Assembly: GCA_965655095.1 (NCBI GenBank)
Contig: OZ296649.1
Span: 148,862,001 to 148,926,000, forward strand
Direction of reading: 5' to 3'
DNA: 64,000 nt
Origin: Haplodiscus bocki
Lineage: Eukaryota
A model generated the notes under the pieces. The model saw nothing but the letters and a program-made list of their open reading frames with translations. It was not told the origin of the DNA and did no database searches. The position numbers were made by a program, and so were the translations under genes. Below, one piece after another: positions 2,611 to 48,400 of the stretch; the first letter of the stretch is position 1; each line of letters starts with the position of its first letter.

Positions 2611-2613
2611 ATT

Positions 2614-17300: not shown

Positions 17301-17459
17301 ATTTTACCCGACGCATTGTATTTGTAGAACCGTCTGGAATCCATGATTTATATTGTGATTGAGGGCTGTAGACCCATACACCATAAAAATCTTGATCCAA
17401 TGGGGTGGCTTGCATGGAACTTTGAATACGAATGAGATAATTTTGCTGTCCTAAATCAG

Positions 17460-17475
17460 TTAACCGGCCGGTTAA
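17460..17475. repeat. Perfect 16-bp palindrome TTAACCGGCCGGTTAA (also at 20414-20429 and 23366-23381)
   Basis: Read directly from the sequence. It replaces TTAAGAAAACAA found in most other units. Confidence 0.95.
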
Positions 17476-23400: not shown

Positions 23401-26400
23401 GGTTCGGTTAGATCGTGGACCGGAAAGTTCCAGGAGAAAGCTGACATGACTCTGACAGCCATTCTTAGTAACAGCATGATACCTAACCAGTGTGCTCGGA
23501 TAGTAACTTTGTCGATCATGTTATTGGTTAGTCTTAGTATTGTAGACATATATTTTAGTTGTTTTTGTATATGAGAGGGAACATTGGTAAGCTAAGACAG
23601 TAGTTGCCTTAGCTCTGATAAACAAATCAACACGTGGTTTATTGTAGGCAACGTCATGTGGATTTGTACTACAATCATCAAGTCGATTAGGGTTAAACCG
23701 GCGTACGTTAAGACGTGCTCGACAAAAATATTTAATTGCCAATATGTTGTTAATTTGGTCTTGATTGACAGTGTGAGTTTGATCTTCAAGAGGTTCGCCG
23801 TTCAGGAGAGGAAACTGGAGAGCTAAGGAGAGCGGGAGTATGATGGTCTTGAAAAAGGATTTAAAAAGGTAGCAGTTCCACGAGGAGTGCAAGTAGATGG
23901 ATCAAAATTAAATTTTAGGCTTGCACAAACAAACGAGGCAGGTGAGGTTCTATAGCTTATATCTGAGCAGAAAAGTGGAAAGGGACGAACAAATAATCTT
24001 TTAAAACAAACGCGTATGGAGAACTGAATTTCCAATTTGGGTTTATAAAGGATGGCAATTTCCTTAGTCTTTTTTGCGGGACTAATACTTAAAGAGCGAT
24101 TTATATTAACAATGCCATCGGATTCCAGAGTGTTATCAAGATAAAATCCAGTACAAAGACAATTAAAGGACTGTGCGTTTTGATGGGTATTTCAAAAGTT
24201 CTGGAGAGAGGGAGGTAATTCATGTGATGAATTTAAACTGAAACATTGACTGTGACGTTCGATACAAGTAGTCGTATCCAAAGATGTATGCCCAAGAGAT
24301 GTAGGAATAATTAAATTATGGATTGGACGAGGAGAAAGGTCAGTAGTTGACAATAATGCAATAATTAATTTACGAAACGGGTTAGTAATGGGTGTAGAAG
24401 GTGAACGAGAGGTAAGTGGTGTATTAGATTGGCGAGGAATGAACATAGTTTGTGAGTTTGTTAGTTGTGTTAAATTACTTGGAGACATTACAATTATAGT
24501 TCCTCTGATAAGGGAAGAAGTACGAAAAAATTTAGTACTTCCAGTAATATTGAAATCATCGTCAGATAAAGTTATGGCATCATAAGAAAGGATTATGGTA
24601 TCGTTAAATTCTTTTCCTGGGAGAATATCGGGGAGTGGTCTATTTGGTAAAATATTCTGGTTAAGATATGGTGAAGCAATTTTTGAAAAGAATAAAAAAG
24701 TACCTTTGTGAGATGAAACGTGAAGAAGAGGTTTGAATTTCGTTGTTTGAAGGCTGAAAGATCAGAGGAGTTGAAAATTGGAGAGAGTGGTATCTATGAA
24801 ATTTAACTATTTTGTATTTTTTAGTAAAATACCGATATGGTAAGTGTTCAAAAACTAGAGTGACCACTTTTTTGAAGGAAATCTAGTAGCTTAGCAAAGA
24901 AGAAATGAACGATTGAAGAGATTCATCTTGATGAGTTTGTTAATTTTCAAATAACTGTGAGATACAAGCTTTAAATGTTAAGAAGCAGCAAGAGAGATTT
25001 TTGTTGTTCGTCAAGTATCAACAAGAGATATTTTGTTGTTTGTTAAATAGCAGCAAGAGAGCTTCTGTTGTTTGTCAAGTAGTAGCAAGAGAGCTTTTGT
25101 TGATTTTAAGTACCAGCTGAATGAGTCGAAGATCAGCGATGAACGAAGAGAAGAAATTATTCAGCTAAACTAATTTGCAGTTGAAAATCTAATCATTGAT
25201 TCATGACTTCTTATCATGGAAATTTGTTGGCTAGCAGCGAGTTTGACTTGCGAGGTAACTTAACGTTCTAGAAAGTTGTTTTGAGTTCCGAAGCGTATAT
25301 CGATTATAAAATGTCGAGGATCGAGTTCAAAGAGTATCTAACGAAATCAACAATATTCGTAACGGTGCAAACCCAACGCTCGGTTGATAACTTCGTCAAA
25401 AAACGATTCGATAGGTAGGCGAGTTTCATAAGAGAGATAAATGTAGGTTCTAAGAAACTGTTTGGATTTTTAAATAGTTTATTAGTCTTTCAAAATGTCG
25501 GAGAATTAAGTCAAAACATCTACAAAACTGAAAGTTTAATTTGTTTTGATAGGCGGTGTAGTTATGAACAGATAAAGGGATTATTTGGAAGGATAATAAT
25601 TTTGAAAAAAAGAGGCTGTCTAAACTGATTTGAGCTATTTTTATCCCCAGTGAAAATAATATTTAGATGGAGGTGTATGGGCGCGGTAGTCTTTGACAGG
25701 TTGTCGTCGAAGACGGCGGGTTGTTCGGGATTGATAAAATCCGGAAGTTTGGGAAGATGTTGCGCCTAGTGGAGGCACTGTTGGTGTTTTGGTATCAGTT
25801 CGATTGGTATTTGCTTGATTATTCAGCGTAGTAGGCGGTTTTTGAGAATTATCAAAGATTAATGGAGACGAAGTGTCGTCATCAGTGGAATTTGTCGAGG
25901 TTTGGTGCCTGTCAGTCAAAAAGAAATCTGGTGTAGTCTCGTTGCCAGAATCTTCTAGCGAATCGCAAGGTAATCGCTCGGGTGCATATATTTCGCCGGC
26001 TGGGTTAAACGAGGATATGGTTATATGTGGCTTAAAAGAAACCGTTTTATATTGTTGGAAAAGTTATTCTAAATGGGGGACAACGGGATAAAATGGGATC
26101 AAATGGTTTCGGTGTGCGAACAAAACATTTCCTTGATGTGACAGTAACTGATATTTCACATTTTACTCGACGCATTGTATTTGTAGAACCATCTGGAATC
26201 CATGATTATTAATGTGATTGAGGGCTGTAGTCCCATACACCATAAAAATCTTGATCCAATGGGGTCGCTTGCATGGAACTTTGAATACGAATGAGATAAT
26301 CTTGCTGTCCTGAATCAGTTAAGAAAACAAGAGTTTGAGGAGATTCCATGGTTCGGTTAGACCCTGGACCGGAAAGTTCCAAGAGAAAGCTGACATGACT

Positions 26401-27157
26401 CTGACAGCCATACCTAGTAACAGCATGATACCTAACCATTGTCCTCGGATAGTAACTTTGTCGATCACGTTAATGTTATATTAAAGTCTTAGTATTGTAT
26501 ACATAAAATTTAGTTGTTTTTGTATATGAGAGGGAACATTGGTAAGCTAAGACAGTAGTTGCCTTAGCTCTGATAAACAAATCAACACGTGGTTTATTGT
26601 AGGCAACGTCATGTGGATTTGTACTACAATCATCAAGTCGATTAGGGTGAAACCGGCGTACGTTAAGACGTGCTCGACAAAAATATTTAATTGCCAATAT
26701 GTTGTTAATTTGGTCTTGATTGACAGTGTGAGTTTGATCTTCAAGAGGTTCGCCGTTCAGGAGAGGAAACTGGAGAGCTAAGAAGAGCTGGAGTATGATG
26801 GTCTTGAAAAAGGATTTAAAAAGGTAGCAGTTCCACGAGGAGTGCAAGTAGATGGATCAAAATTAAATTTTAGGCTTGCACAAACAAACGAGGCATGTGA
26901 GGTTCTATAGGTTATATCTGAGCAGAAAAGTGGAAAGGGACGAACATATAATCTTTTAAAACAAACGCGTATGGAGAACTGAATTTCCAAATTGGGTTTA
27001 TAAAGGATGGCAATTTCCTTAGTCTTTTTCGCGGGACTAAGACTTAAAGAGCGATTTATATTAACAATGCCATCGGATTCAAGAGTGCTATCAAGATAAA
27101 ACCCAGTAGAAAAAATAAAGGACTGTGCGTTTTGATGGGTATTTCAAAAGTTCAGGC

Positions 27158-27176
27158 GAGAGAGAGAGAGAGAGAG
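27158..27176 (+). repeat. (GA)9G microsatellite expansion in U9
   Basis: Other units read GGAGAGAGGGAGG at this site. Confidence 0.9.
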
Positions 27177-30130
27177 GTAACTCATGCGATGAATTTAAAC
27201 TGAAACATTGAATGTGAAGTTCGACACAAGTAGTCGTATCCAAAGATGTATGCTCAAGAGATGTAGGGCTAATTAAATTACGGATCGGACGAGGAGAAAG
27301 GTCAGTAGTTGACAATAATGCAATATTTGAATTACGAGACGGGTTAGTATTGGGTATAGAAGGTGAACGAGAGGTAAGTGGTGTATTAGAATGGCGAGGA
27401 GAGGAATCAACATAGTTTGTGAGTTTGTTAGTTGTGTTAAATTACTTGGAGACATTACAATTATATTTCCTCTGATAAGGGAAAAAGTACGAAAAAATTG
27501 AGTACTTCCAGTAATATTGAAATCATCGTCAGATAAAGTTATGGCATCAAAAGAAAGGATTAGGGTATCGTTAAATTCGTTTCCTGGGAGAATATCGAGG
27601 AGTGGTCTACTTGGTAAAATACTCTGGTTATGACATAGAGAAGCAATTTTTGAAAAGATTAAAAAACTACCTACGTGAGAAGAAACGTGAAGAAGAGGTC
27701 TGAATTTCGTTGATTGAAGGCTGAAAAATCACAGGATTTGAAAAATGGAGAGAGTGGTATCTATGAAATTTAAAGAGTCGGTTGACTATTTTGTACTTTT
27801 CAGTAAAATACCAATATGGAAAGTTTTCAAAAATTAGAGAGACCGGTTACTTGAACGAAATCTAGTAACTTAGCAAAGAAGAAATGAACGGTTGAAGAGA
27901 TGCATCTTGATGACTTTGTTAATTTTCATATAACTGTCAGATGGAAACTTTAAATGTTAAGAAGCCGGAAGAGATATTTTTGTAGTTCGTCAAGTATCAA
28001 CAAGAGATATTTTGTTGTTTGTTAAAAAGCAGCAAGAGAGCTTCTGTTATTTGTCAAGTAGTAGCAAGAGAGCTTTTGTTGATTTCATGTGCCAGCTCAA
28101 TGAGTCGAAGATAAGCGATGAACGAAGAGAAGAAATTATTCAGCTAAACTACTTTGCAGTGAAAAACTAATGAGTGGTTGAAGACTTCGTATCATGGAAT
28201 TTTGTTGGCTAGCAGCGAGTTTGACTTGGGAGGTAACTTAACGTTCTAGAAAGTTGTTTCGAATTCCGAAGCGTATATTGGTTATAAAATGCCGAAGATC
28301 GAGTTCAAAGAGTATCTATCGAAAACAACAATATTCCTACCGGTGCAATCCCAACGCTCGGTTAGTAACTCCGTCAAAAAACGATCTGAATGGTAGGCGA
28401 ATTTCATAAGAGAGATAAATGTAGGTTCTAAGAAACTGTTTGGATTTTTGAATAGTTCATTAGTCTTTCAAAATCTCGGAAAACGAAGTCAAAACATCTA
28501 AAAAAATGAAAGTTTATTTTGCTTTGATATGCGGTGTAGTTATGAACAGATAAAGGGATTATTTGGAAGGATAATAATTTTGAAAAAAAGGGGCTGTCTA
28601 AACTGATTTGAGCTATTTTTCTCCCGAGTGAAAATAATATTTAGATGGAGTTAGATGGGTCCGGTAGTCTTTGACAGGTTGTCGTCGAAGACGGCGGGTT
28701 GTTCGGGATTGATAATATCCGGAAGTTTGGGAAGATGTTGCGCCTAGTGGAGGCGCTGTTGGTGTTTTGGTATCAGTTCGATTGGTATTTGCTTGATTAT
28801 TCAGCGTAGTAGGCGGTTTTTGAGAATTATCAAAGATTAATGGAGACGAAGTGTCGTCATCAGTGGAATTTGTCGAGGTTTGGTGCCTGTCAGTCAAAAA
28901 GAAATCTGGTGTAGTCTCGTTGCCAGAATCTTCTAGCGAATCGCAAGGTAATCGCTCGGGTGCATATATTTCGCCGGCTGGGTTAAACGAGGATATGGTT
29001 ATATGTGGCTTAAAAGAAACCGTTTTATATTGTTGGAAAAGTTATTCTAAATGGGGGACAACGGGATAAAATGGGATCAAATGGTTTCGGTGTGCGAACA
29101 AAACATTTCCTTGATGTGACAGTAACTGATATTTCACATTTTACTCGACGCATTGTATTTGTAGAACCATCTGGAATCCATGATTATTAATGTGATTGAG
29201 GGCTGTAGTCCCATACACCATAAAAATCTTGATCCAATGGGGTCGCTTGCATGGAACTTTGAATACGAATGAGATAATCTTGCTGTCCTGAATCAGTTAA
29301 GAAAAGAGTTTGAGGAGATTCCATGGTTCGGTTAGACCCTGGACCGGAAAGTTCCAAGAGAAAGCTGACATGACTCTGACAGCCATACCTAGTAACAGCA
29401 TGATACCTAACCATTGTCCTCGGATAGTAACTTTGTCGATCACGTTAATGTTATATTAAAGTCTTAGTATTGTATACATAAATTTTAGTTGTTTTTGTAT
29501 ATGAGAGGGAACATTGGTAAGCTAAGACAGTAGTTGCCTTAGCGCTGATAAACAAATCAACACGTGGTTTATTGTAGGCAACGTCATGTGGATTTGTACT
29601 ACAATCATCAAGTCGATTAGGGTTAAACCGGCGTACGTTAAGACGTTCTCGACAAAAATATTTAATTGCCAATGTGTTGTTAATTTGGTCTTGATTGACA
29701 GTGTGAGTTTGATCTTCAAGAGGTTCGCCGTTCAGGAGAGGAAACTGGAGAGCTAAGAAGAGCTGGAGTATGATGGTCTTGAAAAAGGATTTAAAAAGGT
29801 AGCAGTTCCACGAGGAGTGCAAGTAGATGGATCAAAATTAAATTTTAGGCTTGCACAAACAAACGAGGCAGGTGAGGTTCTATAGGTTATATCTGAGCAG
29901 AAAAGTGGAAAGGGACGAACATATAATCTTTTGAAACAAACGCGTATGGAGAACTGAATTTCCAAATTGGGTTTATAAAGGATGGCAATTTCCTTAGTCT
30001 TTTTCGCGGGACTAAGACTTAAAGAGCGATTTATATTAACAATGCCATCGGATTCAAGAGTGCTATCAAGATAAAACCCAGTAGAAAAAAGAAAGGACTG
30101 TGCGTTTTGATGGGTATTTCAAAAGTTCAG

Positions 30131-30149
30131 GAGAGAGAGAGAGAGAGAG
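30131..30149 (+). repeat. (GA)9G microsatellite expansion in U10
   Basis: Same site and same expansion as 27158-27176. Confidence 0.9.
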
Positions 30150-31590
30150 GTAACTCATGCGATGAATTTAAACTGAAACATTGAATGTGAAGTTCGACAC
30201 AAGTAGTCGTATCCAAAGATGTATGCTCAAGAGATGTAGGGCTAATTAAATTACGGATCGGACGAGGAGAAAGGTCAGTAGTTGACAATAATGCAATATT
30301 TGAATTACGAGACGGGTTAGTATTGGGTGTAGAAGGTGAACGAGAGGTAAGTGGTGTATTAGAATGGCGAGGAGAGGAATCAACATAGTTTGTGAGTTTG
30401 TTAGTTGTGTTAAATTACTTGGAGACATTACAATTATATTTCCTCTGATAAGGGAAAAAGTACGAAAAAATTGAGTACTTCCAGTAATATTGAAATCATC
30501 GTCAGATAAAGTTATGGCATCAAAAGAAAGGATTAGGGTATCGTTAAATTCGTTTCCTGGGAGAATATCGAGGAGTGGTCTACTTGGTAAAATACTCTGG
30601 TTATGACATAGAGAAGCAATTTTTGAAAAGATTAAAAAACTACCTACGTGAGAAGAAACGTGAAGAAGAGGTCTGAATTTCGTTGATTGAAGGCTGAAAA
30701 ATCACAGGAGTTGAAAAATGCAGAGAGTGGTATCTATGAAATTTAAAGAGTCGGTTGACTATTTTGTACTTTTCAGTAAAATACCGATATGGAAAGTTTT
30801 CAAAAATTAGAGAGACGGGTTACTTGAACGAAATCTAGTAACTTAGCAAAGAAGAAATGAACGGTTGAAGAGACGCATCTTGATGACTTTGTTAATTTTC
30901 ATATAACTGTCAGATGGAAACTTTAAATGTTAAGAAGCCGGAAGAGATATTTTTGTAGTTCGTCAAGTATCAACAAGAGATATTTTGTTGTTTGTTAAAA
31001 AGCAGCAAGAGAGCTTCTGTTATTTGTCAAGTAGTAGCAAGAGAGCTTTTGTTGATTTCATGTGCCAGCTCAATGAGTCGAAGATAAGCGATGAACGAAG
31101 AGAAGAAATTATTCAGCTAAACTACTTTGCAGTGAAAAACTAATGAGTGGTTGAAGACTTCGTATCATGGAATTTTGTTGGCTAGCACCGAGTTTGACTT
31201 GGGAGGTAACTTAACGTTCTAGAAAGTTGTTTCGAATTCCGAAGCGTATATTGGTTATAAAATGCCGAAGATCGAGTTCAAAGAGTATCTATCGAAAACA
31301 ACAATATTCCTACCGGTGCAATCCCAACGCTCGGTTAGTAACTCCGTCAAAAAACGATCTGAATGGTAGGCGAATTTCATAAGAGATAAATGTAGGTTCT
31401 AAGAAACTGTTTGGGTTTTTGAATAGTTTATTAGTCTTTCAAAATCTCGGAAAACGAAGTCAAAACATCTAAAAAAAATGAAAGTTTATTTTGCTTTGAT
31501 ATGCGGTGTAGTTATGAACAGACAAAGAGATTATTTGGAAAGACAACAATTTTAAAAAACAGAGGCTGTCTAAACTGATTTGAGCTATTT

Positions 31591-32109
31591 TTATCCCGAG
31601 TGAAAATAAAATTTAGATGGAGGTATATGGGTGCTGTAGCCTTTGACAGGTTGTCGTCGAAGACGGCGGGTTGTTCGGAATTGAGAATATACTGAAGTTT
31701 GGTAAGATGTTGCGCCTAGTGGAGGCGCTGTTGGTGTTTTGGTATCAGTTTGATTGGTATTTGCTTGATCATTCAGCATAGTAGGCGGTTGTTGAGAATT
31801 ATCAAAGATTAATGGAGACGAAGTGTCGTCATCAGTGGAATTTATCGAGGTTTGGTGCCTGTCAGTCAAAAAGAAATCTGGTGTAGTCTCGTTGCCAGAA
31901 TCTTCTAGCGAATCGCAAGGTAATCGCTCGGGTGCACATATTTCACCGGCCGGGTTAAAGGAGGATATGGTTATATGTGGCTTGAAAAAAACAGTTTTAT
32001 ATTGTTGAAAAAAATTTTCTAAATGGGGGACAACGGGATAAAATGGGATCAAATGGTTTCGGTGTGCGAACAAAACATTTCCTTGATGTGACAGTAACTG
32101 ATATTTCAC
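31591..32109 (-). pseudogene. pol 3' end fragment: integrase C-terminal region plus S/T/P/D-rich tail (fully open copy, 5'-truncated)
   Basis: 172 open codons, VKYQLLSHQGNVLFAHRNHLIPFYP...RRLRRQPVKGY. 'Y.L....G.....HRNHL.PFY' matches the end of the Ty3/Gypsy integrase C-terminal domain (Y-x-L...H-x-x-x-L-K-P-Y/F pattern). The basic R-x-L-R-R-x-P-x-x-Y end is typical of Gypsy pol termini. There is no real start: the annotated start is a GTG at the junction. Confidence 0.75.
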
Positions 32110-35082
32110 ATTTTACCCGACGCATTGTATTTGTAGAACCAACTGGAATCCAAGATTTATATTGTGATTGAGGGCTGTAGACCCATACACCATAAAAATC
32201 TTGATCCAATGGGGTGGCTTGCAAGGAACTTTGAATACGAATGAGATAATTTTGCTGTCCTAAATCAGTTAACAAAACAATAGTTTGAGGAGATTCCATG
32301 GTTCGGTTAGATCGTGGACCGGAAAGTTCCAAGAGAAAGCTGACATGACTCTGACAGCCATTCTTAGTAACAGCATGATACCTAACCAGTGTGCTCGGAT
32401 AGTTACTTTGTCCATCATGTTATTGGTTAGTCTTAGTATTGTAGACAAAAATTTTAGTTGTTTTTGTATATGAGAGGGAACATTGGTAAGCTAAGACAGT
32501 AGTTGCCTTAGCTCTGATAAACAAATCAACACGTGGTTTATTGTAGGCAACGTCATGGGGATTTGTACTACAATCATCAAGTCGATTAAGGTTAAACCGG
32601 CGTACGTTGAGACGTTCTCGACAAAAATAATGAATTGCCAATATGTTGTTTATTTCGTCTTGATTGACAGTGTGAGTTTGATCTTAAAGAGGTTCGTCGT
32701 TGAGGAGAGAGAGAATGTGAGGGAACTGGAGAGCTAAGAAGAGCTGGAGTATGACAATTTTGAACAAGGATTATAAAAGGTAGCAGTTCCACGAGGACTG
32801 CAAGTAGATGGATAAAAATCAAATTTCAGGCTTCAATAAACGAGGCAGGTGAGGTTCTATAGGTTATACCTGGGCAGAAAAGTGGAACGGGACGAACATA
32901 TAAGCTTTTAAAACAAACGCGAATGGAGAAGTGAATTTCTAAATTCGGTTTATAAAGGATGGCAATTTCCTTAGTCTTTTTTGCGGGACTAAGACTTAAA
33001 GAGCGATTTATATTAACAATGCCATCGGATTCAAGAGTGTTATCAAGATAAAATCCAGTAGAAAGAAAATTAAAGGACTGTGCGTTCTGATGGGTATTTC
33101 AAAAGTTCTGGAGAGAGGAAGGTAATTCATGTGATGAATTTAAACTGAAACATTGAATGTGACGTTCGAGACAAGTAGTCGTATCCAAAGATGTATGCTC
33201 AAGAGATGTAGGATTAATTAAATTATGGACTGGACGAAGAAAAAGGTCAGTAGTTGACAATAATGCAATATTTAATTTACGAGACGGGTTAGTAATGGGT
33301 GTAGAAGGTGAACGAGAGATAAGTGGTGTATTAGATTGGCGAGGAGAGGAATGAACATAGTTTGTGAGTCTGTTAGTTGTGTTAAATTACTTGGAGACAT
33401 TACAATTATAGTTCCTCTGATAAGGGAAAAAGTATGAAAAAATTTAGTACTTCCAGTAATATTGAAATCATCGTCAGATAAAGTTATGGCATCATAAGAA
33501 AGGATTATGGTATCGTTAAATTCGTTTCCTGGGAGAATATCGGGGAGTGGTCTATTTGGTAAAATATTCTGGTTAAGATATGGTGAAGCAATTTTTGAAA
33601 AAAATAAAAAACTACCTTTGTGAGATGAAACCTGAAGAAGAGCTTTGAATTTCGTTGTTTGAAGGCTGAAAGATCAGAGGAGTTGGAAATTGAAGAGAGT
33701 GGTATCTATGAAAATTAAAGAGTCGGTTAACTATTTTGTATATTTTGGTAAAATACCGATAAGGAAAGTGTTCAAAAACTAGAGGGACCGCTTTTTTGAA
33801 GAAATCTAGTAGCTTAGCCAAGAAGAAATGAACGATTGAAGAGATTCATCTTGATGAGTTTGTTAATTTTCAAATAACTGTGAGATACAATCTTTAAATG
33901 TTAAGAAGCAGCAAGAGAGATTTTTGTTGTTCTTCAAGTATCAACAAGAGATATTTTGTTGTTTGTTAAATAGCAGCAAGAGAGCTTCTGTTATTTGTCA
34001 AGTAGTAGCAAGAGAGCTTTTGTTGATTTCATGTACCAGCTGAATGAGTCGAAGATAAGCGATGAATGAAGAGAAGAAAATATTCAGCTAAACTATTTTG
34101 CAGTGGAAAGTCTAATGATTGGTTAAGGACTTCGTAACATGGAATTTTGTTGGCTAGCAGCGAGTTTGACTTGGGAGGTAACATAACGTTCTAGAAAGTT
34201 GTTTTGAATTCCGAAGCGTATATCGGTTATTAAATGCCGAAGATCGAGTTCAAAGGGTATCTATCGAAAACAACAATATTCGTACCGGTGCAATCCCAAC
34301 GCTCGGTTAGTAACTCCGTCAAAAAACGATCTGATTGGTAGGCGAATTTCATAAGAGAGATAAATGTAGGTTCTAAGAAACTGTTTGGGTTTTTGAATAG
34401 TTTATTAGTCTTTCAAAATCTCGGAAAACGAAGTCAAAACATCTAAAAAAATGAAAGTTTATTTTGCTTTGATATGCGGTGTAGTTATGAACAGACAAAG
34501 AGATTATTTGGAAAGACAACAATTTTAAAAAACAGAGGCTGTCTAAACTGATTTGAGCTATTTTTATCCCGAGTGAAAATAATATTTAGATGGAGGTATA
34601 TGGGTCCGGTAGTCTTTGACAGGTCGTCGAAGACGGCGGGTTGTTCGGGATTGAGAATATACGGAAGTTTGGGAAGATGTTGCGCCTAGTGGAGGCGCTG
34701 TTGGTGTTATGGTATCAGTTTGAAATGTATTTGCTTGATCATTCAGCGTAGTAGGCGGTTGTTGAGAATTATCAAAGATTAATGGAGACGACGTGCCGTC
34801 ATCAGTGGAATTTATCGATGTTTGGTGCCTGTCAGTCAAAAAGAAATCTGGTGTAGTTTCGTTGCCAGAATCTTCTAGCGAATCGCAAGGTAATCGCTCG
34901 GGTGCACATATTTCGCCGGCTGGGTTAAACGAGGATATGTTTATATGTGGCTTAAAAGAAACCGTTTTATATTGTTGGAAAAGTTATTCTAAATGGGGGA
35001 CAACGGGATAGAATGGGATCAAATGGTTTCGGTGTGCGAACAAAACATTTCCTTGATGTCACAGTAACTGATATTTCATATT

Positions 35083-35726
35083 TTACCCGACGCATTGTAT
35101 TTGTAGAACCGTCTGAAATCCATGACTTATATTGTAATTGAGGGCTGTAGACCCATACACCATAAAAATCTTGATCCAATGGGGTGGCTTGCATGGAACT
35201 TTGAATACGAATGAGATAATTTTGCGGTCCTAAATCAGTTAAGAAAACAATAGTTTAAGGAGATTCCATGGTTCGGTTAGATCGTGGACCGGAAAGTTCC
35301 AAGAGAAAGCTGATATGACTCTGACAGCCATTCTTAGTAACAGCATGATACCTAACCAGTGTGCTCGGATAGTAACTTTGTCGATCATGTTATTGGTTAG
35401 TCTTAGTATTGTAGACATATATTTTAGTTGTTTTTTGTATATGAGAGGGAACATTGGTAAGCTAAGACAGTAGTTGCCTTTGCTCTGATAAACAAATCAA
35501 CACGTGGTTTATTGTAGGCAACGTCATGTGGATTTGTACTACAATCATCAAGTCGATTAAGGTTAAACCGGCGTACGTTGAGACGTTCTCGACAAAAATA
35601 AAAAATTGCCAATATGTTGTTTATTTCGTCTTGATTGACAGTGTGAGTTTGATCTTCAAGAGGTTCGTCGTTCAGGAGAGGGAACTGGAGAGCTAAACAG
35701 AGATGGAGTATGATAATATTGAACAT
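35083..35726 (-). pseudogene. env-like glycoprotein 5' fragment (U12), with a 1-bp frameshift near 35430
   Basis: ATG at 35726 overlaps the end of ORF B. Homologous to 40944..41586. Confidence 0.58.
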
Positions 35727-36628
35727 GGATTATTAAAGGTAGGAGTTCCACGAGGATTGCAAGTAGATGGATCAAAATTAAATTTTAGGCTGGCACAAAC
35801 AAACGAGGCATGTGAGGTTCTATAGGTTATATCTGAGCAGAAAAGTGGAACGGGACGAACATATAAGCTTTTAAAACAAACGCGAATGGAGAACTGAATT
35901 TCTAAATTGGGTTTACAAAGGTTGGCAATTTCCTTAGTCTTTTTTGCGGGAGTAAGACTTAAAGAGCGATTTTTATTAACAATGCCATCGGATTCGAGAG
36001 TGTTATCAAGATAAAATCCAGTAGAAAGAAAATTAAAGGACTGTGCGTTCTGATGGGTATTTCGAAAGTTCTGGAGAGAGGAAGGTAATTCATGTGATGA
36101 ATTTAAACTGAAACATTGAATGTGACGTTCGAGACAAGTAGTCGTAATCAAAGATGTATGCTCAAGGGATGTAGGATTGATTAAATTATGGACTGGACGA
36201 GGAAAAAGGTCAGTAGTTGACAATAATGCAATATTTAATTTACGAGACGGGTTAGTAAATGGTGTAGAAGGTGAACGAGAGGTAAGTGGTGTATTAGATT
36301 GGCGAGCAATGAACATAGTTTGTGAGTTTGTTAGTTGTGTTAAATTACTTGGAGACATTACAATTATAGTTCCTCCGATAAGGGAAAAAGTACGAAAAAA
36401 TTTAGTACTTCCAGTAATATTGAAATCATCATCAGATAAAGTTATGGCATCATAAGAAAGGATTATGGTATCGTTAAATTCGTTTCCTGGGAGAATATCG
36501 GGGAGTGGTCTATTTGGTAAAATATTCTGGTTAAGATATGGTGAAGCAATTTTTGAAAAGAAGAAAAAACTACCTTTGTGAGATGAAACGTGAAGAAAAG
36601 GTTTGAATTTCGTTGTTTGAAGGCTCAA
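35693..36628 (-). pseudogene. Accessory ORF ('ORF B') of unknown function between pol and env; longest open copy (311 codons)
   Basis: Longest ORF in the window. Fragments of it recur in every unit. It probably extends further 5' across a frameshift into the FEHFPYRYFTKKYKIVNRLFKFHRYH frame. No domain was recognised, and the annotated start is not ATG. Confidence 0.6.
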
Positions 36629-39600
36629 AGATCAGAGGAGTTGAAAATTTGAGAGAGTGGTATCTATGAAATTTAAAGAGTCGGTTAACTATTTTGTATT
36701 TTTTAGTAAAATACCGATATGGAAAGTGTTCAAAAACTAGACGGACCGCTTTTTTGAAGGAAATCTAGTAGCTTAGCAAAGAAGAAATGAACGATTGAAG
36801 AGATTCATCTTGATGAGTTTGTTAAATTTCAAATAACTGTGAGATACAATCTTTAAATGTTAAGAAGCAGGAAGAGATATTTTTGTTGTTCGTCAAGTAT
36901 CAACAAGAGATATTTTGTTGTTTGTTAAATAGCAGCAAGAGAGCTTCTGTTAATTGTCAAGTAGTAGCAAGAGAGCTTTTGTTGATTTCATGTACCAGCT
37001 GAATGAGTCGAAGATAAGCGATGAATGAAGAGAAGAAATTATTCAGCTAAACTATTTTGCAGTGGAAAATCTAATGATTGATTGATGACTTCGTATCATG
37101 GAAATTTGTTGGCTAGCAGCGAGTTTGACTTGGGAGGTAACTTAACGTTCTAGAAAGTTGTTTTGAATTCCGAAGCGTATATCGATTATAAAATGTCGAG
37201 GATCGAGTTCAAAGAGTATCTATCGAAATCAACAATATTCGTACCGGTGCAATCCCAACGCTCGGTTGGTAACTCCGTCAAAAAACGATTTGATAGGTAG
37301 GCGAGTTTCATAAGAGAGATAAATGTAGGTTCTAAGAAACTGTTTCGATTTTTGAATAGTTTATTAGTCTTTCAAAATGTCGGAGAATGAGGTCAAAACA
37401 TCTACAAAACTGAAAGTTTAATTTGTTTTGATAGGCGGTGTAGTTATGAACAGACAAAGGGATTATTTGGAAGGATTATAATTTTGAAAAACAGACCCTG
37501 TCTAAACTGATTTGAGCTATTTTTATCCCGAGTGAAAATAATATTTAGATGGAGGTATATGGGTGCGTTAGTCTTTGACAGGTTGTCGTCGAAGACGGCG
37601 GGTTGTTCGGGATTGATAATATCCGGAAGTTTGGGAAGATGTTGCGCTTACTGGAGGCGCTGTTGGTGTGATGGTCTCAGTTTGATTGGTATTTGCTTGA
37701 TCATTCAGCGTAGTAGGCGGTTTTTGAGAATTATCAAAGATTAATGGAGACGAAGTGTCGTCATCAGTGGAATTTATCGAGGTTTGCTGCCTGTCAGTCA
37801 AAAAGAAATCTGGTGTAGTCTCGTTCCCAGAATCTTCTAGCGAATCGTAAAGTAATCGCTCGCGTGCATATATTTCGCCGGCTAGGTTAAACGAGGATAT
37901 GGTTATATGTGGCTTGAAAAAAAACCGTTTTATACTGTTGAAAAAGTTTTTCTAAATGGAGGACAACGGGATAAAACGGGATCAAATGGTTTCGGTGTGC
38001 GAACAAAACATTTCCTTGATGTGACAGTAACTGATATTTCACATTTTACCCGACGCATTGTATTTGTAGAACCGTCTGGAATCCATGATTTATATTGTGA
38101 TTGAGGGCTGTAGACCCATACACCATAAAAATCTTGATCCAATGGGGTGGCGGCTTGCATGGAACTTTGAATACGAATGAGATAAATTTGCTGTCCTGAA
38201 TCAGTTAAGAAAACAGTAGTTTGAAGAGATTGCATGGTTCGGTTAGATCGTGAAAGTTTCAAGAGAAAGCTGACATGACTCTGACAGCCATTCTTAGTAA
38301 CAGCATGATACCTAACCAGTGTGCTCAGATAGTAACTTTGTCGATCATTTTATTGGTTAGTCTTAGTAATGTAGACATAAATTTTAGTTGTTTTTGTATA
38401 TGAGAGGGAACATTGGTAAGCTAAGACAGTAGTTGCCTTAGCTCTGATAAACAAATCAACACGTGGTTTATTGTAGGCAACGTCATGTGGATTTGTACTA
38501 CAATCATCAAGTCGATTAAGGTTAAACCGGCGTACGTTAAGACGTTCTCGACAAAAATATTGAATTGCCAATATGTTATTTCGTCTTGATTGACAGTGTG
38601 AGTTTGATCTTCAAGAGGTTCGTCGTTGAGGAGAGAGAGAATGTGAGGGAACTGGAGAGCTAAGAAGAGCTGGAGTATGACAATTGTGAACAAGGATTAT
38701 AAAAGGTAGCAGTTCCACGAGGACTGCAAGTAGATGGATCAAAAACAAAATTCAGGCTTCAATAAACGAGGCAGGCGAGGTTCTATAGGTTATACCTGGG
38801 CAGAAAAGTGGAACGGGACTAACATATAATCTTTTAAAACAAACGCAAATGGAGAACTGAATTTCTAAATTCGGTTTATAAAGGATGGCAATTTCCTTAG
38901 TCTTTTTTGCGGGACTAAGACTTAAAGAGCGATTTATAATAACAATGCCATCGGATTCAAGAGTGTTATCAAGATAAAATCCAGTAGAAAGAAAATTAAA
39001 GGACTGTGCGTTTTGATGGGTATTTCAAAAGTTCTGGAGAGAGGGAGGTAATTCATGTGATGAATTTAAACTGAAGCATTGAATGTGACGTTCGACACAA
39101 GTAGTCGTATCCAAAGATGTATGCTCAAGAGATGTAGGATTAATTAAAATATGGATTGGACGAGGAGAAAGGTCAGTAGTTGACAATAATGCAATATTTA
39201 ATTTACGAGACGGGTTAGTAATGGGTGTAGAAGGTGAGCGAGAGGTAAGTGGTGTATTAGATTGGCGAGGAGAGGAATGAAGGTAGCTTGTGAGTTTGTT
39301 AGTTGTGTTAAAAAATTTGTAGACATTACAACTATAGTTCCTCTGATAGAGGAAAAAGTACGAAAAAACTTAGTACTTCCAGTGTTATTGAAATCATCGT
39401 CAGATAAGGTTATGGCATCATAAGAAAGGATTATGGTATCGTTAAATTGGTTTCTTGGGAGAATGTCGGGGAGTGGTCTATTTGGTAAAACATTTTGGTT
39501 ATGATATGGTGAAGCAATTTTTGAAAAGATTAAAAAAGCTATCTATGTGAGATGAAACGTGAGGAAGAGGTTTGAACTTCGTTGTTTGAAGGCAGAAAGA

Positions 39601-40943
39601 TCAGAGGAGTTGAAAATTGGAGAGAGTGGTATCTATGAAATTTAAAGAGTCGGTTAATTATTTTGTATTTTTTAGTAAAATACCGATATGGAAAGTGTTC
39701 AAAAATTAGAGAGACCGGTTACTTGAACGGAATCTAGTAACCTAGCAAAGAAGAAATGAACGGTTGAAGAGATGCATCTTGATGAGTTTGTTAATTTTCA
39801 TATAACTGTGAGATAGAATCTTTAAATGTTAAGAAGCAGGAAGAGATATTTTTGTTGTTCGTCAAGTATCAACAAGAGAGCTTTTGTTGCTTTTAAGTAC
39901 CAGCTGAATGAGTCGAAGATTAGCGAAGAATGAAGAGCAGAAATTATTCAGCTTAAATATTTTGCAGTTAAAATCTAATGATTGGTTGAGGACTTCGTAC
40001 CATGGCATTTTGATGGCTAGCGAGTTTGACTTGGGAGGTGATCTAAGGTTCTAGAAAGTTGTTTTGAATTCTGAAGCGTATATCGATTATAAAATGCCGC
40101 AGAACGAGTTCAAAGAGTATCTATCGAAAACAACAATATTCGTACCGGTGCAATCCCAACGCTCGGTTAGTAACTCCGTCAAAAAACGATCTGATTGGTA
40201 GGCGAATTTCATAAGAGAGATAAATGTAGGTTCTAAGAAACTGTTTGGGTTTTTGAATAGTTTATTAGTCTTTCAAAATCTCGGAAAACGAAGTCAAAAC
40301 ATCTAAAAAAATGAAAGTTTATTTTGCTTTGATATGCGGTGTAGTTATGAACAGACAAAGAGATTATTTGGAAAGACAACAATTTTAAAAAACAGAGGCT
40401 GTCTAAACTGATTTGAGCTATTTTTATCCCGAGTGAAAATAATATTTAGATGGAGGTATATGGGTCCGGTAGTCTTTGACAGGTCGTCGAAGACGGCGGG
40501 TTGTTCGGGATTGAGAATATACGGAAGTTTGGGAAGATGTTGCGCCTAGTGGAGGCGCTGTTGGTGTTATGGTATCAGTTTGAAATGTATTTGCTTGATC
40601 ATTCAGCGTAGTAGGCGGTTGTTGAGAATTATCAAAGATTAATGGAGACGACGTGCCGTCATCAGTGGAATTTATCGATGTTTGGTGCCTGTCAGTCAAA
40701 AAGAAATCTGGTGTAGTCTCGTTGCCAGAATCTTCTAGCGAATCGCAAGGTAATCGCTCGGGTGCACATATTTCACCGGCCGGGTTAAAGGAGGATATGG
40801 TTATATGTGGCTTGAAAAAAAACCGTTTTATATTGTTGAACAAGTTTTTCAAAATGAGGGACAACGGGATAGAATGGGATCAAATGGTTTCGGTGTGCGA
40901 ACAAAACATTTCCTTGATGTCACAGTAACTGATATTTCATATT

Positions 40944-41586
40944 TTACCCGACGCATTGTATTTGTAGAACCGTCTGAAATCCATGACTTATATTGTGATT
41001 GAGGGCTGTAGACCCATACACCATAAAAATCTTGATCCAATGGGGTGGCTTGCATGGAACTTTGAATACGAATGAGATAATTTTGCGGTCCTAAATCAGT
41101 TAAGAAAACAATAGTTTGAGGAGATTGTATGGTTCGGTTAGACCGTGGACCGGAAAGTTCCAAAAGAAAGCTGGCATGACTCTGACAGCCATTCTTAGTA
41201 ACAGCATGATACCTAACCAGTGTGCTCGGATAGTAACTTTGTCGATCATGTTATTGGTTAGTCTTAGTATTGTAGACATATATTTTAGTTGTTTTTGTAT
41301 ATGAGAGGGAACATTGGTAAGCTAAGACAGTAGTTGCCTTTGCTCTGATAAACAAATCAACACGTGGTTTATTGTAGGCAACGTCATGTGGATTTGTACT
41401 ACAATCATCAAGTCGATTAAGGTTAAACCGGCGTACGTTGAGACGTTCTCGACAAAAATAAAAAATTGCCAATATGTTGTTTATTTCGTCTTGATTGACA
41501 GTGTGAGTTTGATTTTCAAGAGGTTCGTCGTTCAGGAGAGGGAACTGGAGAGCTAAAAAGAGATGGAGTATGATAATATTGAACAT
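40944..41586 (-). pseudogene. env-like glycoprotein 5' fragment (~214 codons, one internal TAA, truncated at the unit junction)
   Basis: ATG at 41586 is followed by a hydrophobic signal-peptide-like MFNIIILHLFLALQFP and spaced cysteines (YFC...DDC...YQC...NGC). ORFs 41251..41586 and 40849..41163 are in the same frame, separated only by TAA at 41251-41253. It lies downstream of pol. Confidence 0.65.
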
Positions 41587-41921
41587 GGATTATTAAAGGT
41601 AGGAGTTCCACGAGGAGTGCAAGTAGATGGATCAAAATTAAATTTTAGGCTGGCACAAACAAACGAGGCATGTGAGGTTCTATAGGTTATATCTGAGCAG
41701 AAAAGTGGAACGGGACGAACATATAAGCTTTTAAAACAAACGCGAATGGAGAACTGAATTTCTAAATTGGGTTTACAAAGGTTGGCAATTTCCTCAGTCT
41801 TTTTTGCGGGAGTAAGACTTAAAGAGCGATTTATATTAACAATGCCATCGGATTCGAGAGTGTTATCAAGATAAAATCCAGTAGAAAGAAAATTAAAGGA
41901 CTGTGCGTTTTGATGGGTATT

Positions 41922-42488
41922 TCAAAAGTTCTGGAGAGAGGAAGGTAATTCATGTGATGAATTTAAACTGAAACATTGAATGTGACGTTCGAGACAAGTA
42001 GTCGTATCCAAAGATGTATGCTCAAGGGATGTAGGATTGATTAAATTATGGACTGGACGAGGAAAAAGGTCAGTAGTTGACAATAATGCAATATTTAATT
42101 TACGAGACGGGTTAGTAAATGGTGTAGAAGGTGAACGAGAGGTAAGTGGTGTATTAGATTGGCGAGCAATGAACATAGTTTGTGAGTTTGTTAGTTGTGT
42201 TAAATTACTTGGAGACATTACAATTATAGTTCCTCCGATAAGGGAAAAAGTACGAAAAAATTTAGTACTTCCAGTAATATTGAAATCATCATCAGATAAA
42301 GTTATGGCATCATAAGAAAGGATTATGGTATCGTTAAATTCGTTTCCTGGGAGAATATCGGGGAGTGGTCTATTTGGTAAAATATTCTGGTTAAGATATG
42401 GTGAAGCAATTTTTGAAAAGAAGAAAAAACTACCTTTGTGAGATGAAACGTGAATAAAAGGTTTGAATTTCGTTGTTTGAAGGCTCAA
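41922..42488 (-). pseudogene. ORF B N-terminal part, truncated by TGA (U14; near-identical copy at 44879..45445)
   Basis: 188 codons nearly identical to 35693..36628 up to the CGA/TGA polymorphic codon. Confidence 0.55.
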
Positions 42489-45400
42489 AGATCAGAGGAG
42501 TTGAAAATTTGAGAGAGTGGTATCTATGAAATTTAAAGAGTCGGTTAACTATTTTGTATTTTTTAGTAAAATACCGATATGGAAAGTGTTCAAAAACTAG
42601 AGGGACCGCTTTTTTGAAGGAAATCTAGTAGCTTAGCAAAGAAGAAATGAACGATTGAAGAGATTCATCTTGATGAGTTTGTTAAATTTCAAATAACTGA
42701 GATACAATCTTTAAATGTTAAGAAGCAGGAAGAGATATTTTTGTTGTTCGTCAAGTATCAACAAGAGATATTTTGTTGTTTGTTAAATAGCAGCAAGAGA
42801 GCTTCTGTTAATTGTCAAGTAGTAGCAAGAGAGCTTTTGTTGATTTCATGTACCAGCTGAATGAGTCGAAGATAAGCGATGAATGAAGAGAAGAAATTAT
42901 TCAGCTAAACTATTTTGCAGTGGAAAATCTAATGATTGATTGATGACTTCGTATCATGGAAATTTGTTGGCTAGCAGCGAGTTTGACTTGGGAGGTAACT
43001 TAACGTTCTAGAAAGTTGTTTTGAATTCCGAAGCGTATATCGATTATAAAATGTCGAGGATCGAGTTCAAAGAGTATCTATCGAAATCAACAATATTCGT
43101 ACCGGTGCAATCCCAACGCTCGGTTGGTAACTCCGTCAAAAAACGATTTGATAGGTAGGCGAGTTTCATAAGAGAGATAAATGTAGGTTCTAAGAAACTG
43201 TTTCGATTTTTGAATAGTTTATTAGTCTTTCAAAATGTCGGAGAATGAAGTCAAAACATCTACAAAACTGAAAGTTTAATTTGTTTTGATAGGCGGTGTA
43301 GTTATGAACAGACAAAGGGATTATTTGGAAGGATAATAATTTTGAAAAACAGACCCTGTCTAAACTGATTTGAGCTATTTTTATCCCGAGTGAAAATAAT
43401 ATTTAGATGGAGGTATATGGGTGCGTTAGTCTTTGACAGGTTGTCGTCGAAGACGGCGGGTTGTTCGGGATTGATAATATCCGGAAGTTTGGGAAGATGT
43501 TGCGCTTACTGGAGGCGCTGTTGGTGTGATGGTCTCAGTTTGATTGGTATTTGCTTGATCATTCAGCGTAGTAGGCGGTTTTTGAGAATTATCAAAGATT
43601 AATGGAGACGAAGTGTCGTCATCAGTGGAATTTATCGAGCTTTGCTGCCTGTCAGTCAAAAAGAAATCTGGTGTAGCCTCGTTCCCAGAATATTCTAGCG
43701 AATCGTAAAGTAATCGCTCGCGTGCATATATTTCGCCGGCTAGGTTAAACGAGGATATGGTTATATGTGGCTTGAAAAAAAACCGTTTTATACTGTTGAA
43801 AAAGTTTTTCTAAATGGAGGACAACAGGATAAAACGGGATCAAATGGTTTCGGTGTGCGAACAAAACATTTCCTTGATGTGACAGTAACTGATATTTCAC
43901 ATTTTACCCGACGCATTGTATTTGTAGAACCGTCTGGAATCCATGATTTATATTGTGATTGAGGGCTGCAGACCCATACACCATAAAAATCTTGATCCAA
44001 TGGGGTGGCGGCTTGCATGGAACTTTGAATACGAATGAGATAATTTTGCTGTCCTGAATCAGTTAAGAAAACAGTAGTTTGAGGAGATTGCATGGTTCGG
44101 TTAGATCGTGAAAGTTCCAAGAGAAAGCTGACATGACTCTGACAGCCATTCTTAGTAACAGCATGATACCAAACCAGTGTGCTCGGATAGTAACTTTGTC
44201 GATCATGTTATTGGTTAGTCTTAGTATTGTAGACATATATTTTAGTTGTTTTTGTATATGAGAGGGAACATTGGTAAGCTAAGACAGTAGTTGCCTTAGC
44301 TCTGATAAACAAATCAACACGTGGTTTATTCTAGGCAACGTCATGTGGATTTGTACTACAATCATCAAGTCGATTAAGGTTAAACCGGCGTACGTTAAGA
44401 CGTTCTCGACAATAATAATGAATTGCCAATATGTTGTTAATTTGGTCTTGATTGACAGTGTGAGTTTGATCTTCAAGAGGTTCGCCGTTCAGGAGAGAAA
44501 ACTGGAGAGCTGAGAAGAGCCGGAGTATGATAATCTTGAAAATGGATTTAAAAAGGTAGCAGTTCCACGAGGAGTGCAAGTAGATGGATCAAAATTAAAT
44601 TTTAGGCTGGCACAAACAAACGAGGCATGTGAGGTTCTATAGGTTATATCTGAGCAGAAAAGTGGAACGGGACGAACATATAAGCTTTTAAAACAAACGC
44701 GAATGGAGAACTGAATTTCTAAATTGGGTTTACAAAGGTTGGCAATTTCCTCAGTCTTTTTTGCGGGAGTAAGACTTAAAGAGCGATTTATATTAACAAT
44801 GCCATCGGATTCGAGAGTGTTATCAAGATAAAATCCAGTAGAAAGAAAATTAAAGGACTGTGCGTTTTGATGGGTATTTCAAAAGTTCTGGAGAGAGGAA
44901 GGTAATTCATGTGATGAATTTAAACTGAAACATTGAATGTGACGTTCGAGACAAGTAGTCGTATCCAAAGATGTATGCTCAAGGGATGTAGGATTGATTA
45001 AATTATGGACTGGACGAGGAAAAAGGTCAGTAGTTGACAATAATGCAATATTTAATTTACGAGACGGGTTAGTAAATGGTGTAGAAGGTGAACGAGAGGT
45101 AAGTGGTGTATTAGATTGGCGAGCAATGAACATAGTTTGTGAGTTTGTTAGTTGTGTTAAATTACTTGGAGACATTACAATTATAGTTCCTCCGATAAGG
45201 GAAAAAGTACGAAAAAATTTAGTACTTCCAGTAATATTGAAATCATCATCAGATAAAGTTATGGCATCATAAGAAAGGATTATGGTATCGTTAAATTCGT
45301 TTCCTGGGAGAATATCGGGGAGTGGTCTATTTGGTAAAATATTCTGGTTAAGATATGGTGAAGCAATTTTTGAAAAGAAGAAAAAACTACCTTTGTGAGA

Positions 45401-48400
45401 TGAAACGTGAATAAAAGGTTTGAATTTCGTTGTTTGAAGGCTCAAAGATCAGAGGAGTTGAAAATTTGAGAGAGTGGTATCTATGAAATTTAAAGAGTCG
45501 GTTAACTATTTTGTATTTTTTAGTAAAATACCGATATGGAAAGTGTTCAAAAACTAGAGGGACCGCTTTTTTGAAGGAAATCTAGTAGCTTAGCAAAGAA
45601 GAAATGAACGATTGAAGAGATTCATCTTGATGAGTTTGTTAAATTTCAAATAACTGAGATACAATCTTTAAATGTTAAGAAGCAGGAAGAGATATTTTTG
45701 TTGTTCGTCAAGTATCAACAAGAGATATTTTGTTGTTTGTTAAATAGCAGCAAGAGAGCTTCTGTTAATTGTCAAGTAGTAGCAAGAGAGCTTTTGTTGA
45801 TTTCATGTACCAGCTGAATGAGTCGAAGATAAGCGATGAATGAAGAGAAGAAATTATTCAGCTAAACTATTTTGCAGTGGAAAATCTAATGATTGATTGA
45901 TGACTTCGTATCATGGAAATTTGTTGGCTAGCAGCGAGTTTGACTTGGGAGGTAACTTAACGTTCTAGAAAGTTGTTTTGAATTCCGAAGCGTATATCGA
46001 TTATAAAATGTCGAGGATCGAGTTCAAAGAGTATCTATCGAAATCAACAATATTCGTACCGGTGCAATCCCAACGCTCGGTTGGTAACTCCGTCAAAAAA
46101 CGATTTGATAGGTAGGCGAGTTTCATAAGAGAGATAAATGTAGGTTCTAAGAAACTGTTTCGATTTTTGAATAGTTTATTAGTCTTTCAAAATGTCGGAG
46201 AATGAAGTCAAAACATCTACAAAACTGAAAGTTTAATTTGTTTTGATAGGCGGTGTAGTTATGAACAGACAAAGGGATTATTTGGAAGGATAATAATTTT
46301 GAAAAACAGACCCTGTCTAAACTGATTTGAGCTATTTTTATCCCGAGTGAAAATAATATTTAGATGGAGGTATATGGGTGCGTTAGTCTTTGACAGGTTG
46401 TCGTCGAAGACGGCGGGTTGTTCGGGATTGATAATATCCGGAAGTTTGGGAAGATGTTGCGCTTACTGGAGGCGCTGTTGGTGTGATGGTCTCAGTTTGA
46501 TTGGTATTTGCTTGATCATTCAGCGTAGTAGGCGGTTTTTGAGAATTATCAAAGATTAATGGAGACGAAGTGTCGTCATCAGTGGAATTTATCGAGCTTT
46601 GCTGCCTGTCAGTCAAAAATAAATCTGGTGTAGTCTCGTTCCCAGAATATTCTAGCGAATCGTAAAGTAATCGCTCGCGTGCATATATTTCGCCGGCTAG
46701 GTTAAACGAGGATATGGTTATATGTGGCTTGAAAAAAAACCGTTTTATACTGTTGAAAAAGTTTTTCTAAATGGAGGACAACAGGATAAAACGGGATCAA
46801 ATGGTTTCGGTGTGCGAACAAAACATTTCCTTGATGTGACAGTAACTGATATTTCACATTTTACCCGACGCATTGTATTTGTAGAACCGTCTGGAATCCA
46901 TGATTTATATTGTGATTGAGGGCTGCAGACCCATACACCATAAAAATCTTGATCCAATGGGGTGGCGGCTTGCATGGAACTTTGAATACGAATGAGATAA
47001 TTTTGCTGTCCTGAATCAGTTAAGAAAACAGTAGTTTGAGGAGATTGCATGGTTCGGTTAGATCGTGAAAGTTCCAAGAGAAAGCTGACATGACTCTGAC
47101 AGCCATTCTTAGTAACAGCATGATACCAAACCAGTGTGCTCGGATAGTAACTTTGTCGATCATGTTATTGGTTAGTCTTAGTATTGTAGACATATATTTT
47201 AGTTGTTTTTGTATATGAGAGGGAACATTGGTAAGCTAAGACAGTAGTTGCCTTAGCTCTGATAAACAAATCAACACGTGGTTTATTCTAGGCAACGTCA
47301 TGTGGATTTGTACTACAATCATCAAGTCGATTAAGGTTAAACTGGCGTACGTTAAGACGTTCTCGACAAAAATAATGAATTGCCAATATGTTGTTTATTT
47401 CGTCTTGATTGACAGTGTGAGTTTGATCTTCAAGAGGTTCGTCGTTGAGGAGAGAGAGAATGTGAGGGAACTGGAGAGCTAAGAAGAGCTGGAGTATGAC
47501 AATTGTGAACAAGGATTATAAAAGGTAGCAGTTCCACGAGGACTGCAAGTAGATGGATCAAAAACAAATTTCAGGCTTCAATAAACGAGGCAGGTGAGGT
47601 TCTATAGGTTATACCTGGGCAGAAAAGTGGAACGGGACTAACATATAATCTTTTAAAACAAACGCAAATGGAGAACTGAATTTCTAAATTGGGTTCATAA
47701 AGGATAGCAATTTCCTTAGTCTTTTTTGCGGGACTAAGACTTAAAGAGCGATTTATATTAACAATGCCATCGGAATCAAGAGTGTTATCAAGATAAAATC
47801 CAGTAGAAAGAAAATTAAAGGACTGTGCGTTTTGATGGGTATTTCAAAAGTTCTGGAGAGAGGGAGGTAAGTTATGTGATGAATTTAAACTGAAACATTG
47901 AATGTGACGTTCGAGACAAGTAGTCGTATCCAAAGATGAATGCTCAAGAGAGGTAGGATTAATTAAATCATGAATTGGACGAGGAAAAAGGTCAGTAGTT
48001 GACAATAATGCAATATTTAAATTACGAGACGGGTTAGTATTGGGTGTAGAAGGTGAACGAGAGGTAAGTGATGTAGTAGATTGGCGAGGAATGAACATAG
48101 TTTGTGAGTTTGTTAGTTGTGTTAAATTACTAGGAGACATTACAATTATAGTTCCTCTGATAGAGGAAAAAGTACGAAAAAACTTAGTACTTCCAGTGTT
48201 ACTGAAATCATCGTCAGATAAAGTTATGGCATCATAAGAAAGGATTATGGTATCGTTAAATTCGTTTCCTGGGAGAATATCGGGGAGTGGTCTACTTGGT
48301 AAAATATTCTGGTTACGATATGGTGAAGCAATTTTTGAAAAAATTAAAAAACTACCTATGTGAGATGAAACGTGAAGAAGAGGTTTGAATTTCGTTGTTT

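Follow-up and report, generated by a model that had tools for sequence, protein, structure and literature searches.

The pol-env interval and its tandem array

We analysed a 64-kb window of the Haplodiscus bocki genome (contig OZ296649.1, positions 148,862,001 to 148,926,000) in which an open reading frame (ORF), here called ORF B, lies between the pol and env genes of a Gypsy-type element. The pol stop codon and the env ATG (35726-35724), both on the minus strand, are about 1.8 kb apart, and the interval holds a stop-free frame of 312 codons on the same strand (36631-35696, closed by a TAG at 35695-35693). A first-pass annotation of the sequence had reported this spacing and an ORF of at least 311 codons, and both stand. 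In 2000 base shuffles of the repeat unit described below, no frame reached 312 codons (median 94, maximum 236).

The interval recurs in the window as part of a tandem array (Table 1). The repeat is present in 22 head-to-tail copies at a spacing of 2843-2979 nt, each unit comprising, in order, the tail of pol, a spacer, ORF B and the start of env, and pol and env in the window are therefore fragments. Beyond the window, the array extends over about 190 kb (G000:C2:148.821-149.010 Mb), or by division about 64 units. At its edges, a pol gene with reverse transcriptase (RT), ribonuclease H (RNase H) and integrase enters the first unit and the last unit passes into the remainder of env, and a direct repeat of 304 bp (89%) brackets the whole array together with its host element. 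The array junction was found in contigs of both sequencing runs examined, and the array is therefore not an assembly artefact. Mean divergence among the 20 complete units is 5.7%, and ORF B evolves neutrally among array units, with a ratio of nonsynonymous to synonymous substitution rates (dN/dS) of 0.98 (0.68-1.48). Read from the ATT at 36550, one of the 20 complete units is open as far as the normal stop (285 codons), another extends to 297 codons and the other 18 end after 12-162. All of the array is dead sequence. It represents one dead copy whose interior was amplified in a satellite-like manner, and it documents the growth of such an array to ~190 kb within a single element.

Table 1. 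Features of the window and of the parent element (window positions unless a locus is named)
Feature	Position	Strand	Remarks
Tandem array, ~2.96-kb units	1..64000	-	internal cut of one env-bearing Gypsy element; extends past window
Unit holding the pol-ORF B-env interval	35096..38058	-	junction cuts at 38058 and 35095
pol C-terminal tail (past integrase core), broken	37523..38058	-	stop TAA 37525-37523
Spacer, non-coding	36575..37522	-	~0.9 kb in window unit
Degenerate splice-donor-like motif (G/GTAAG in dispersed copies)	36568..36574	-	also places a stop in the ORF B frame
ORF B proper, 285 codons from candidate ATT start	35693..36550	-	Ser/Pro/Thr-rich N-terminal ~180 residues; without signal peptide or membrane helix
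ORF B conserved C-terminal domain (~95 residues)	35696..36010	-	predicted one helix and five strands
Candidate env-mRNA splice acceptor (inferred)	35833..35834	-	YAG (Y, pyrimidine) 108 nt ahead of env ATG
env N-terminal part (class III fusion type), broken	35096..35726	-	cut by array junction; first codons overlap ORF B end in another frame
ORF E	L027:~8900-10000 with L136; L028:8852-9472; array host L053:4991-4643 and 1893-1574		

At the unit boundaries (35095-35105 and each of the others), env is joined to pol through a short microhomology rich in A/T, together with a few additional bases. A second tandem array of the same family (L113-L115; G000:C2:~95.62-95.70 Mb) has a unit of ~1.47 kb that combines the C-terminal domain of ORF B with the start of env. 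Separate duplications were also observed in L013 (2.2 kb of pol tail and spacer) and L089 (6.5 kb). The pol tail of the window (37660-37646) and of other units contains a PTAPP motif, which we take to resemble a retroviral late domain.

The parent element and selection on its accessory genes

For the parent family, 80 loci chosen by similarity to ORF B or env were examined, and 45 dispersed copies that cover at least 230 ORF B residues at the expected distance from env were kept for comparison; both array ends and deleted, truncated or unrelated loci were excluded. These copies form two subfamilies, a short one (24 copies with a pol-env gap of about 1.3-1.5 kb) and a long one (21 copies, mostly 1.7-2.4 kb), to which the window array belongs. 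The gene order pol-ORF B-env recurs across the 45 copies, all of them decayed. Paired long terminal repeats (LTRs) of 297-310 bp, 80-92% identical and 14.8-15.9 kb apart, flank seven of the eight dispersed copies tested. In the host element of the array, Pfam matches stand in the order RT, RNase H, integrase (RVT_1, RT_RNaseH, Integrase_H2C2 and rve, some below the curated cut-off). By this domain order and the flanking LTRs, we assign the parent to the Ty3/Gypsy LTR retrotransposons (Metaviridae).

Its env matched the class III fusion family PF24664 above the cut-off in two relatives (E 5.2e-10 and 6.5e-7), just under it in the array's host (E 5.8e-6), and at E 0.01 for the window fragment. 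These matches point to a gB/Monjiviricetes-type class III fusion protein, not an F-type protein. In trees built from elements of this genome alone, ORF B carriers group together by env (support 0.944, midpoint root), and the RT and integrase trees, which have no outgroup, are compatible with this grouping. In families A and L056/57, env follows pol closely.

Evidence that ORF B was a functional gene comes from the branch between the two subfamilies (24 short versus 21 long copies), from which within-subfamily decay was subtracted. Over 270 codons, ORF B has a net dN/dS of 0.13 (0.08-0.19), compared with 1.30 and 3.20 for the remaining two sense frames; two env blocks gave 0.13 and 0.11 in the same test. 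The reverse frames gave 1.43, 2.91 and 0.32, the last of which is probably a shadow of the ORF B sense frame. Within each subfamily, ORF B has a dN/dS of 0.74-0.88, and pol and env likewise have values somewhat below 1, which is what decay after insertion should produce. The ORF B frame of the short subfamily has no common stop over ~295 codons, and the other frames have many. ORF B and pol are separated by common stops, and env has its own ATG in another frame, common to 17 of 24 short and 15 of 21 long copies, with ORF B ending at a common stop. The low net dN/dS of this frame alone therefore indicates a real gene, present here as a fossil copy and once under purifying selection, and not a shifted piece of env or pol. 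Two alternatives raised with the original prediction, namely that the frame is neutral in relatives or is a frameshifted part of env or pol, are thus both contradicted.

The spacer between pol and ORF B measures about 0.4 kb in the short subfamily and 0.75-1.4 kb in most long copies. It is non-coding, because most of the indels that separate the subfamilies here have lengths not divisible by three and every frame has common stops; net dN/dS in the three frames is 0.91, 0.90 and 0.43. The "accessory ORF(s)" first proposed for the interval accordingly amount to one selected ORF and not several.

We also identified a second gene, ORF E, which follows env, lies outside the window, is unrelated to ORF B and is interrupted in the array's host. 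In the short subfamily, it spans 592 codons without a common stop and has a common ATG near its start, and a frame homologous to it is present in the long subfamily (hhalign 100%). Two blocks of ORF E gave a net dN/dS of 0.06 and 0.05, and a third was saturated (8 x 9 copies). The ~590-codon frame has a Ser/Pro/Thr-rich start, a conserved middle and a helical-looking end; five fragments, not all surely in the ORF E frame, had no Pfam match. The parent element thus carries accessory genes on both sides of env. This agrees with the earlier description of an env-bearing Gypsy element with extra genes in a complex-retrovirus-like layout: it has RT-RNase H-integrase, a class III env, an accessory gene under purifying selection between pol and env, and another after env.

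Initiation, protein features and relatives of ORF B

No AUG in the ORF B frame is common to copies in the short or long subfamily alignment, and the window copy has two Met codons only, at residues 92 and 106. The frame opens directly after a donor-like G/GTAAG motif, the TAA of which is an in-frame stop. In the short subfamily, 19 of 24 copies have GTAAG at most 40 nt upstream of the ORF B start, and in the long one 4 of 21, compared with 3/288 and 0/246 background windows. Conservation begins at AAA-ATT-G, with the ATT present in 19/24 short and 9/21 long copies, and we give about even chances to a translation start at an AUU in the AAAAUUG context, the main alternative being a spliced upstream exon. 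Two mechanisms that may apply here have precedents: an AUU start in a reverse-transcribing virus (ORF I of rice tungro bacilliform virus; PMC5902531) and a promoter located internally, behind pol, in the Tor elements of Oikopleura (PMC4402516).

Out-of-frame AUGs within ORF B are common to copies (e.g. at 36453, in 19/24 and 15/20), and env would therefore not be reachable by leaky scanning. At the candidate env-mRNA acceptor, AG is present in 14/24 and 11/21 copies after a tract with a pyrimidine fraction of 0.79/0.81, and no ATG between this site and the env ATG is common to the 24 short or 21 long copies. We hypothesize that use of the upstream donor would yield an RNA that skips ORF B and serves as the env mRNA, and that ORF B would be translated from the AUU when this donor is left unused. 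Two short-subfamily copies, L070 (~6980) and L077 (~6860), have lost ORF B through deletions starting 14-24 nt before the pol stop; they were considered as processed spliced RNAs and rejected, their breakpoints being without GT-AG.

ORF B could instead be the second exon of a spliced product that obtains its AUG from an upstream exon (e.g. in gag, as in CERV of the Cer1 element), which we regard as somewhat unlikely. The lack of a common AUG favours this reading, as do a YAG at 36488 (pyrimidine fraction 0.69/0.76, AG in 18/23 and 15/20 copies) and the position of the most constrained ORF B block (ratio 0.04) directly after it. However, the 22 codons before this AG are constrained too (ratio 0.36, 0.14-0.76), unlike an intron end, which counts mildly against it.

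The first 180 residues of ORF B are 33% Ser/Pro/Thr (36-44% in homologues), and the protein has no hydrophobic segment (highest hydropathy window 0.45-1.32). An AlphaFold model of the whole ORF was unusable, with a predicted local distance difference test score (pLDDT) of 41.5. The C-terminal domain, modelled from 58 sequences, reached a pLDDT of 64 and a predicted template modelling score of 0.47. Sequence searches returned no meaningful Pfam match for ORF B, its alignments or its outside homologues (best single-member E 0.008), no match in the PDB (best E 0.18-0.75) and no usable match in the protein atlas (best 0.82). For the domain model, the best Foldseek match among viral models had an E of 0.2, and VIA-align against 48,161 chains gave generic beta sandwiches with a best Z of 4.7, which establishes neither a new nor a known fold. 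Structural analysis, suggested as a check at the outset, thus provided a domain model and no clear fold match. Across the databases searched, ORF B matches no known family and appears to represent an undescribed one, as had been suspected when no domain was recognised in it.

A profile search of 1.84 billion representatives recovered 68 proteins. Many of these look like copies from the same organism (P0006 matches L092 and P0093 matches L062), but P0061, P0071 and P0069, the three that were compared with this genome, have no near counterpart in it (best identity 44, 35 and 34%), and the domain therefore exists in other genomes. A metagenome scan with P0061 found no DNA context. The ORF B domain was not found in the young families A, B, L039 and L056/57. 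It does occur in family C (L058-L066, L117), a large, old family of the same genome with at least 150 matches of 808 candidates, nine copies of which were aligned. Family C has a ~480-codon frame ahead of env with no common stops, versus 32 and 47 in the other frames, and the end of this frame is homologous to the C-terminal domain of ORF B (hhalign 93.9%, E 1.5e-7, versus E 0.66 for the reversed control). Its ORF B homologue includes PSAPP in 3/9 and PSA[PL] in 6/9 copies. Y-x-L-R-S motifs, which we take to be like the chromatin-binding motif of foamy viruses, are present in family C and in P0105.

These features bear on a further explanation, by which ORF B would be a matrix-like adaptor for assembly or budding that was acquired along with env from a negative-strand RNA virus. 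In such viruses, the glycoprotein gene is often preceded by that of the matrix protein. ORF B is always directly ahead of env and overlaps its start, its carriers group in the env tree, the env is of the Monjiviricetes fusion type, and family C carries the PSAP-like late-domain motif. However, the absence of an AUG implies a low-abundance protein, a poor fit to a structural role, and no PSAP-like motif was noticed by eye in the long/short ORF B alignment. Among the fold matches listed for the domain model (pLDDT 64) there is no matrix protein, which need not mean that a matrix fold is absent. Overall, we consider such a capture unlikely.

ORF B is most unlikely to extend env at its N-terminus or to be a piece of env (or pol) in a shifted frame, even though in family C the occupied alignment columns place ORF B and env in one frame and two of eight informative copies read through. 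The spacing in five undeleted family C copies is 73, 73, 73, 71 and 74 nt, none of which is a multiple of three. In the long and short subfamilies, the separate env ATG and the common ORF B stop argue against it directly, and for the window's family the extension is largely refuted. That the frame is a chance or non-coding remnant, as its near-neutral dN/dS in the array and within each subfamily might suggest, is refuted by the between-subfamily dN/dS, which is low in the ORF B frame only, with pol and env decaying alike within subfamilies and protein-level homologues retained at 25-40% identity.

Function and comparison with known elements

We conclude that ORF B is very probably a real fossil accessory gene of a 15-16-kb Ty3/Gypsy element, likely encoding a soluble intracellular regulator expressed at a low level from a sub-genomic RNA. 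The layout of the parent is pol-spacer-ORF B-env-ORF E between two LTRs. The ORF B product is predicted to combine a disordered, phosphorylatable N-terminus with a small folded domain and to act as an adaptor. We tentatively favour a role in regulating viral RNA export, splicing or transcription, similar to Rev, CERV or Tas; this fits best because the protein is soluble, its start codon is weak, it has many Ser/Thr-Pro sites, and Y-x-L-R-S occurs in family C and P0105. A role as an assembly or budding adaptor for Env, suggested by its position and by the PSAP-like motifs (family C only), seems rather unlikely, antagonism of host silencing is doubtful, and some other role is improbable.

Several points weigh against this interpretation. 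The functional assignment is a guess from protein features, position and precedent, and the fold model is of middling confidence and without a clear match. Splicing, start codon and expression of ORF B are read from sequence motifs. In the long subfamily, the donor motif is exact in just four copies and the ATT is present in just nine; moreover, at 9 of the 19 Ile columns that the subfamilies share, ATT is the most frequent codon in each of them, and its conservation here is thus unremarkable. Among the nine family C copies, dN/dS is 0.83, versus 0.81 and 0.90 in the other frames, and the ORF frame is thus not set apart. The outside homologues are known as protein sequences alone, and the ORF itself from decayed copies, with no intact copy of this family among the 80 loci.

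Complex vertebrate retroviruses carry accessory genes between pol and env (lentivirus vif, vpr, tat and rev) and after env (nef, or the bel genes of foamy viruses). The parent element shares with them accessory genes on both sides of env and splice signals in the interval, the latter being motifs here. It differs in its Gypsy-type pol and class III env, so the likeness is one of layout only; no sequence or fold similarity of ORF B to retroviral accessory proteins was found in the Pfam, PDB and fold searches. Accessory genes around env are a mark of complex vertebrate retroviruses, and the parent element represents an independent invertebrate Gypsy case.

Drosophila errantiviruses (gypsy, ZAM) have an F-type env directly after pol, in contrast to the class III env and 1.3-2.4-kb interval found here. 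Env-carrying Gypsy elements with a herpes simplex virus (HSV)/gB-type env, "errantiviruses" in a wide sense, are known across animals (Chary & Hayashi 2026, PMC13524379) and share LTRs, RT-RNase H-integrase, a class III env after pol and many copies. That survey limited the pol-env gap to at most 1000 nt, and the word "accessory" is absent from its main text; the elements described here differ in having a selected ORF within the longer interval and an ORF after env. By analogy, the nearest functional precedent for ORF B would be CERV of Cer1 in Caenorhabditis elegans, an orphan ORF after pol that is part of a spliced mRNA and is needed for export of unspliced RNA (PMC10309623). Compared by description, both are orphan ORFs after pol in an invertebrate Gypsy element, but CERV replaces env and shares gag exons, whereas ORF B adjoins a true env. 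LTR retrotransposons with additional ORFs, some of them located between pol and env, are already known (PMC6431247, PMC5408684). Elements with captured ORFs are described from bdelloid rotifers and plants, and those of the rotifers carry single ORF3s, several of which have known enzyme folds (GDSL, DEDDy), unlike the two orphan genes flanking env in the parent element. An invertebrate env-bearing Gypsy element in which orphan genes under selection flank env on each side was not found in the open-access literature searched.

More generally, it is possible, at somewhat less than even chances, that this animal lineage hosts a clade of Gypsy-chassis "complex retroviruses" in which env lies between two undescribed genes, with ORF B an AUU-initiated regulator of new fold and a single splice donor acting as the switch between it and env. 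This possibility includes a second env-bearing lineage of the same genome with an independent set of three to four extra genes, such that accessory complexity would have had at least two origins outside Retroviridae, missed by a survey with a 1-kb gap limit. ORF B and ORF E offer two undescribed protein families for characterisation, and there is concrete reason to redo metazoan errantivirus surveys without a gap limit.

The second lineage, family B (L044-L052, 721-codon env) with L039, is young and env-bearing and has a ~2.8-kb pol-env interval with other genes. In family B, the pol frame starts with a segment that by its motif looks like a macrodomain (L046, L048, L051, L052), although no macrodomain is among the Pfam matches. 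The extra ORFs of this lineage are likewise under selection, and those that were scanned had no Pfam match. The interval in family B and L039 holds two sense ORFs (~100-136 codons; dN/dS 0.16 and 0.10), the 136-codon ORF of family B having a homologue in L039 (E 1e-5), and a conserved antisense ORF (dN 0.23, dS saturated). A further ORF of 159 codons follows env, with a dN/dS of 0.11.

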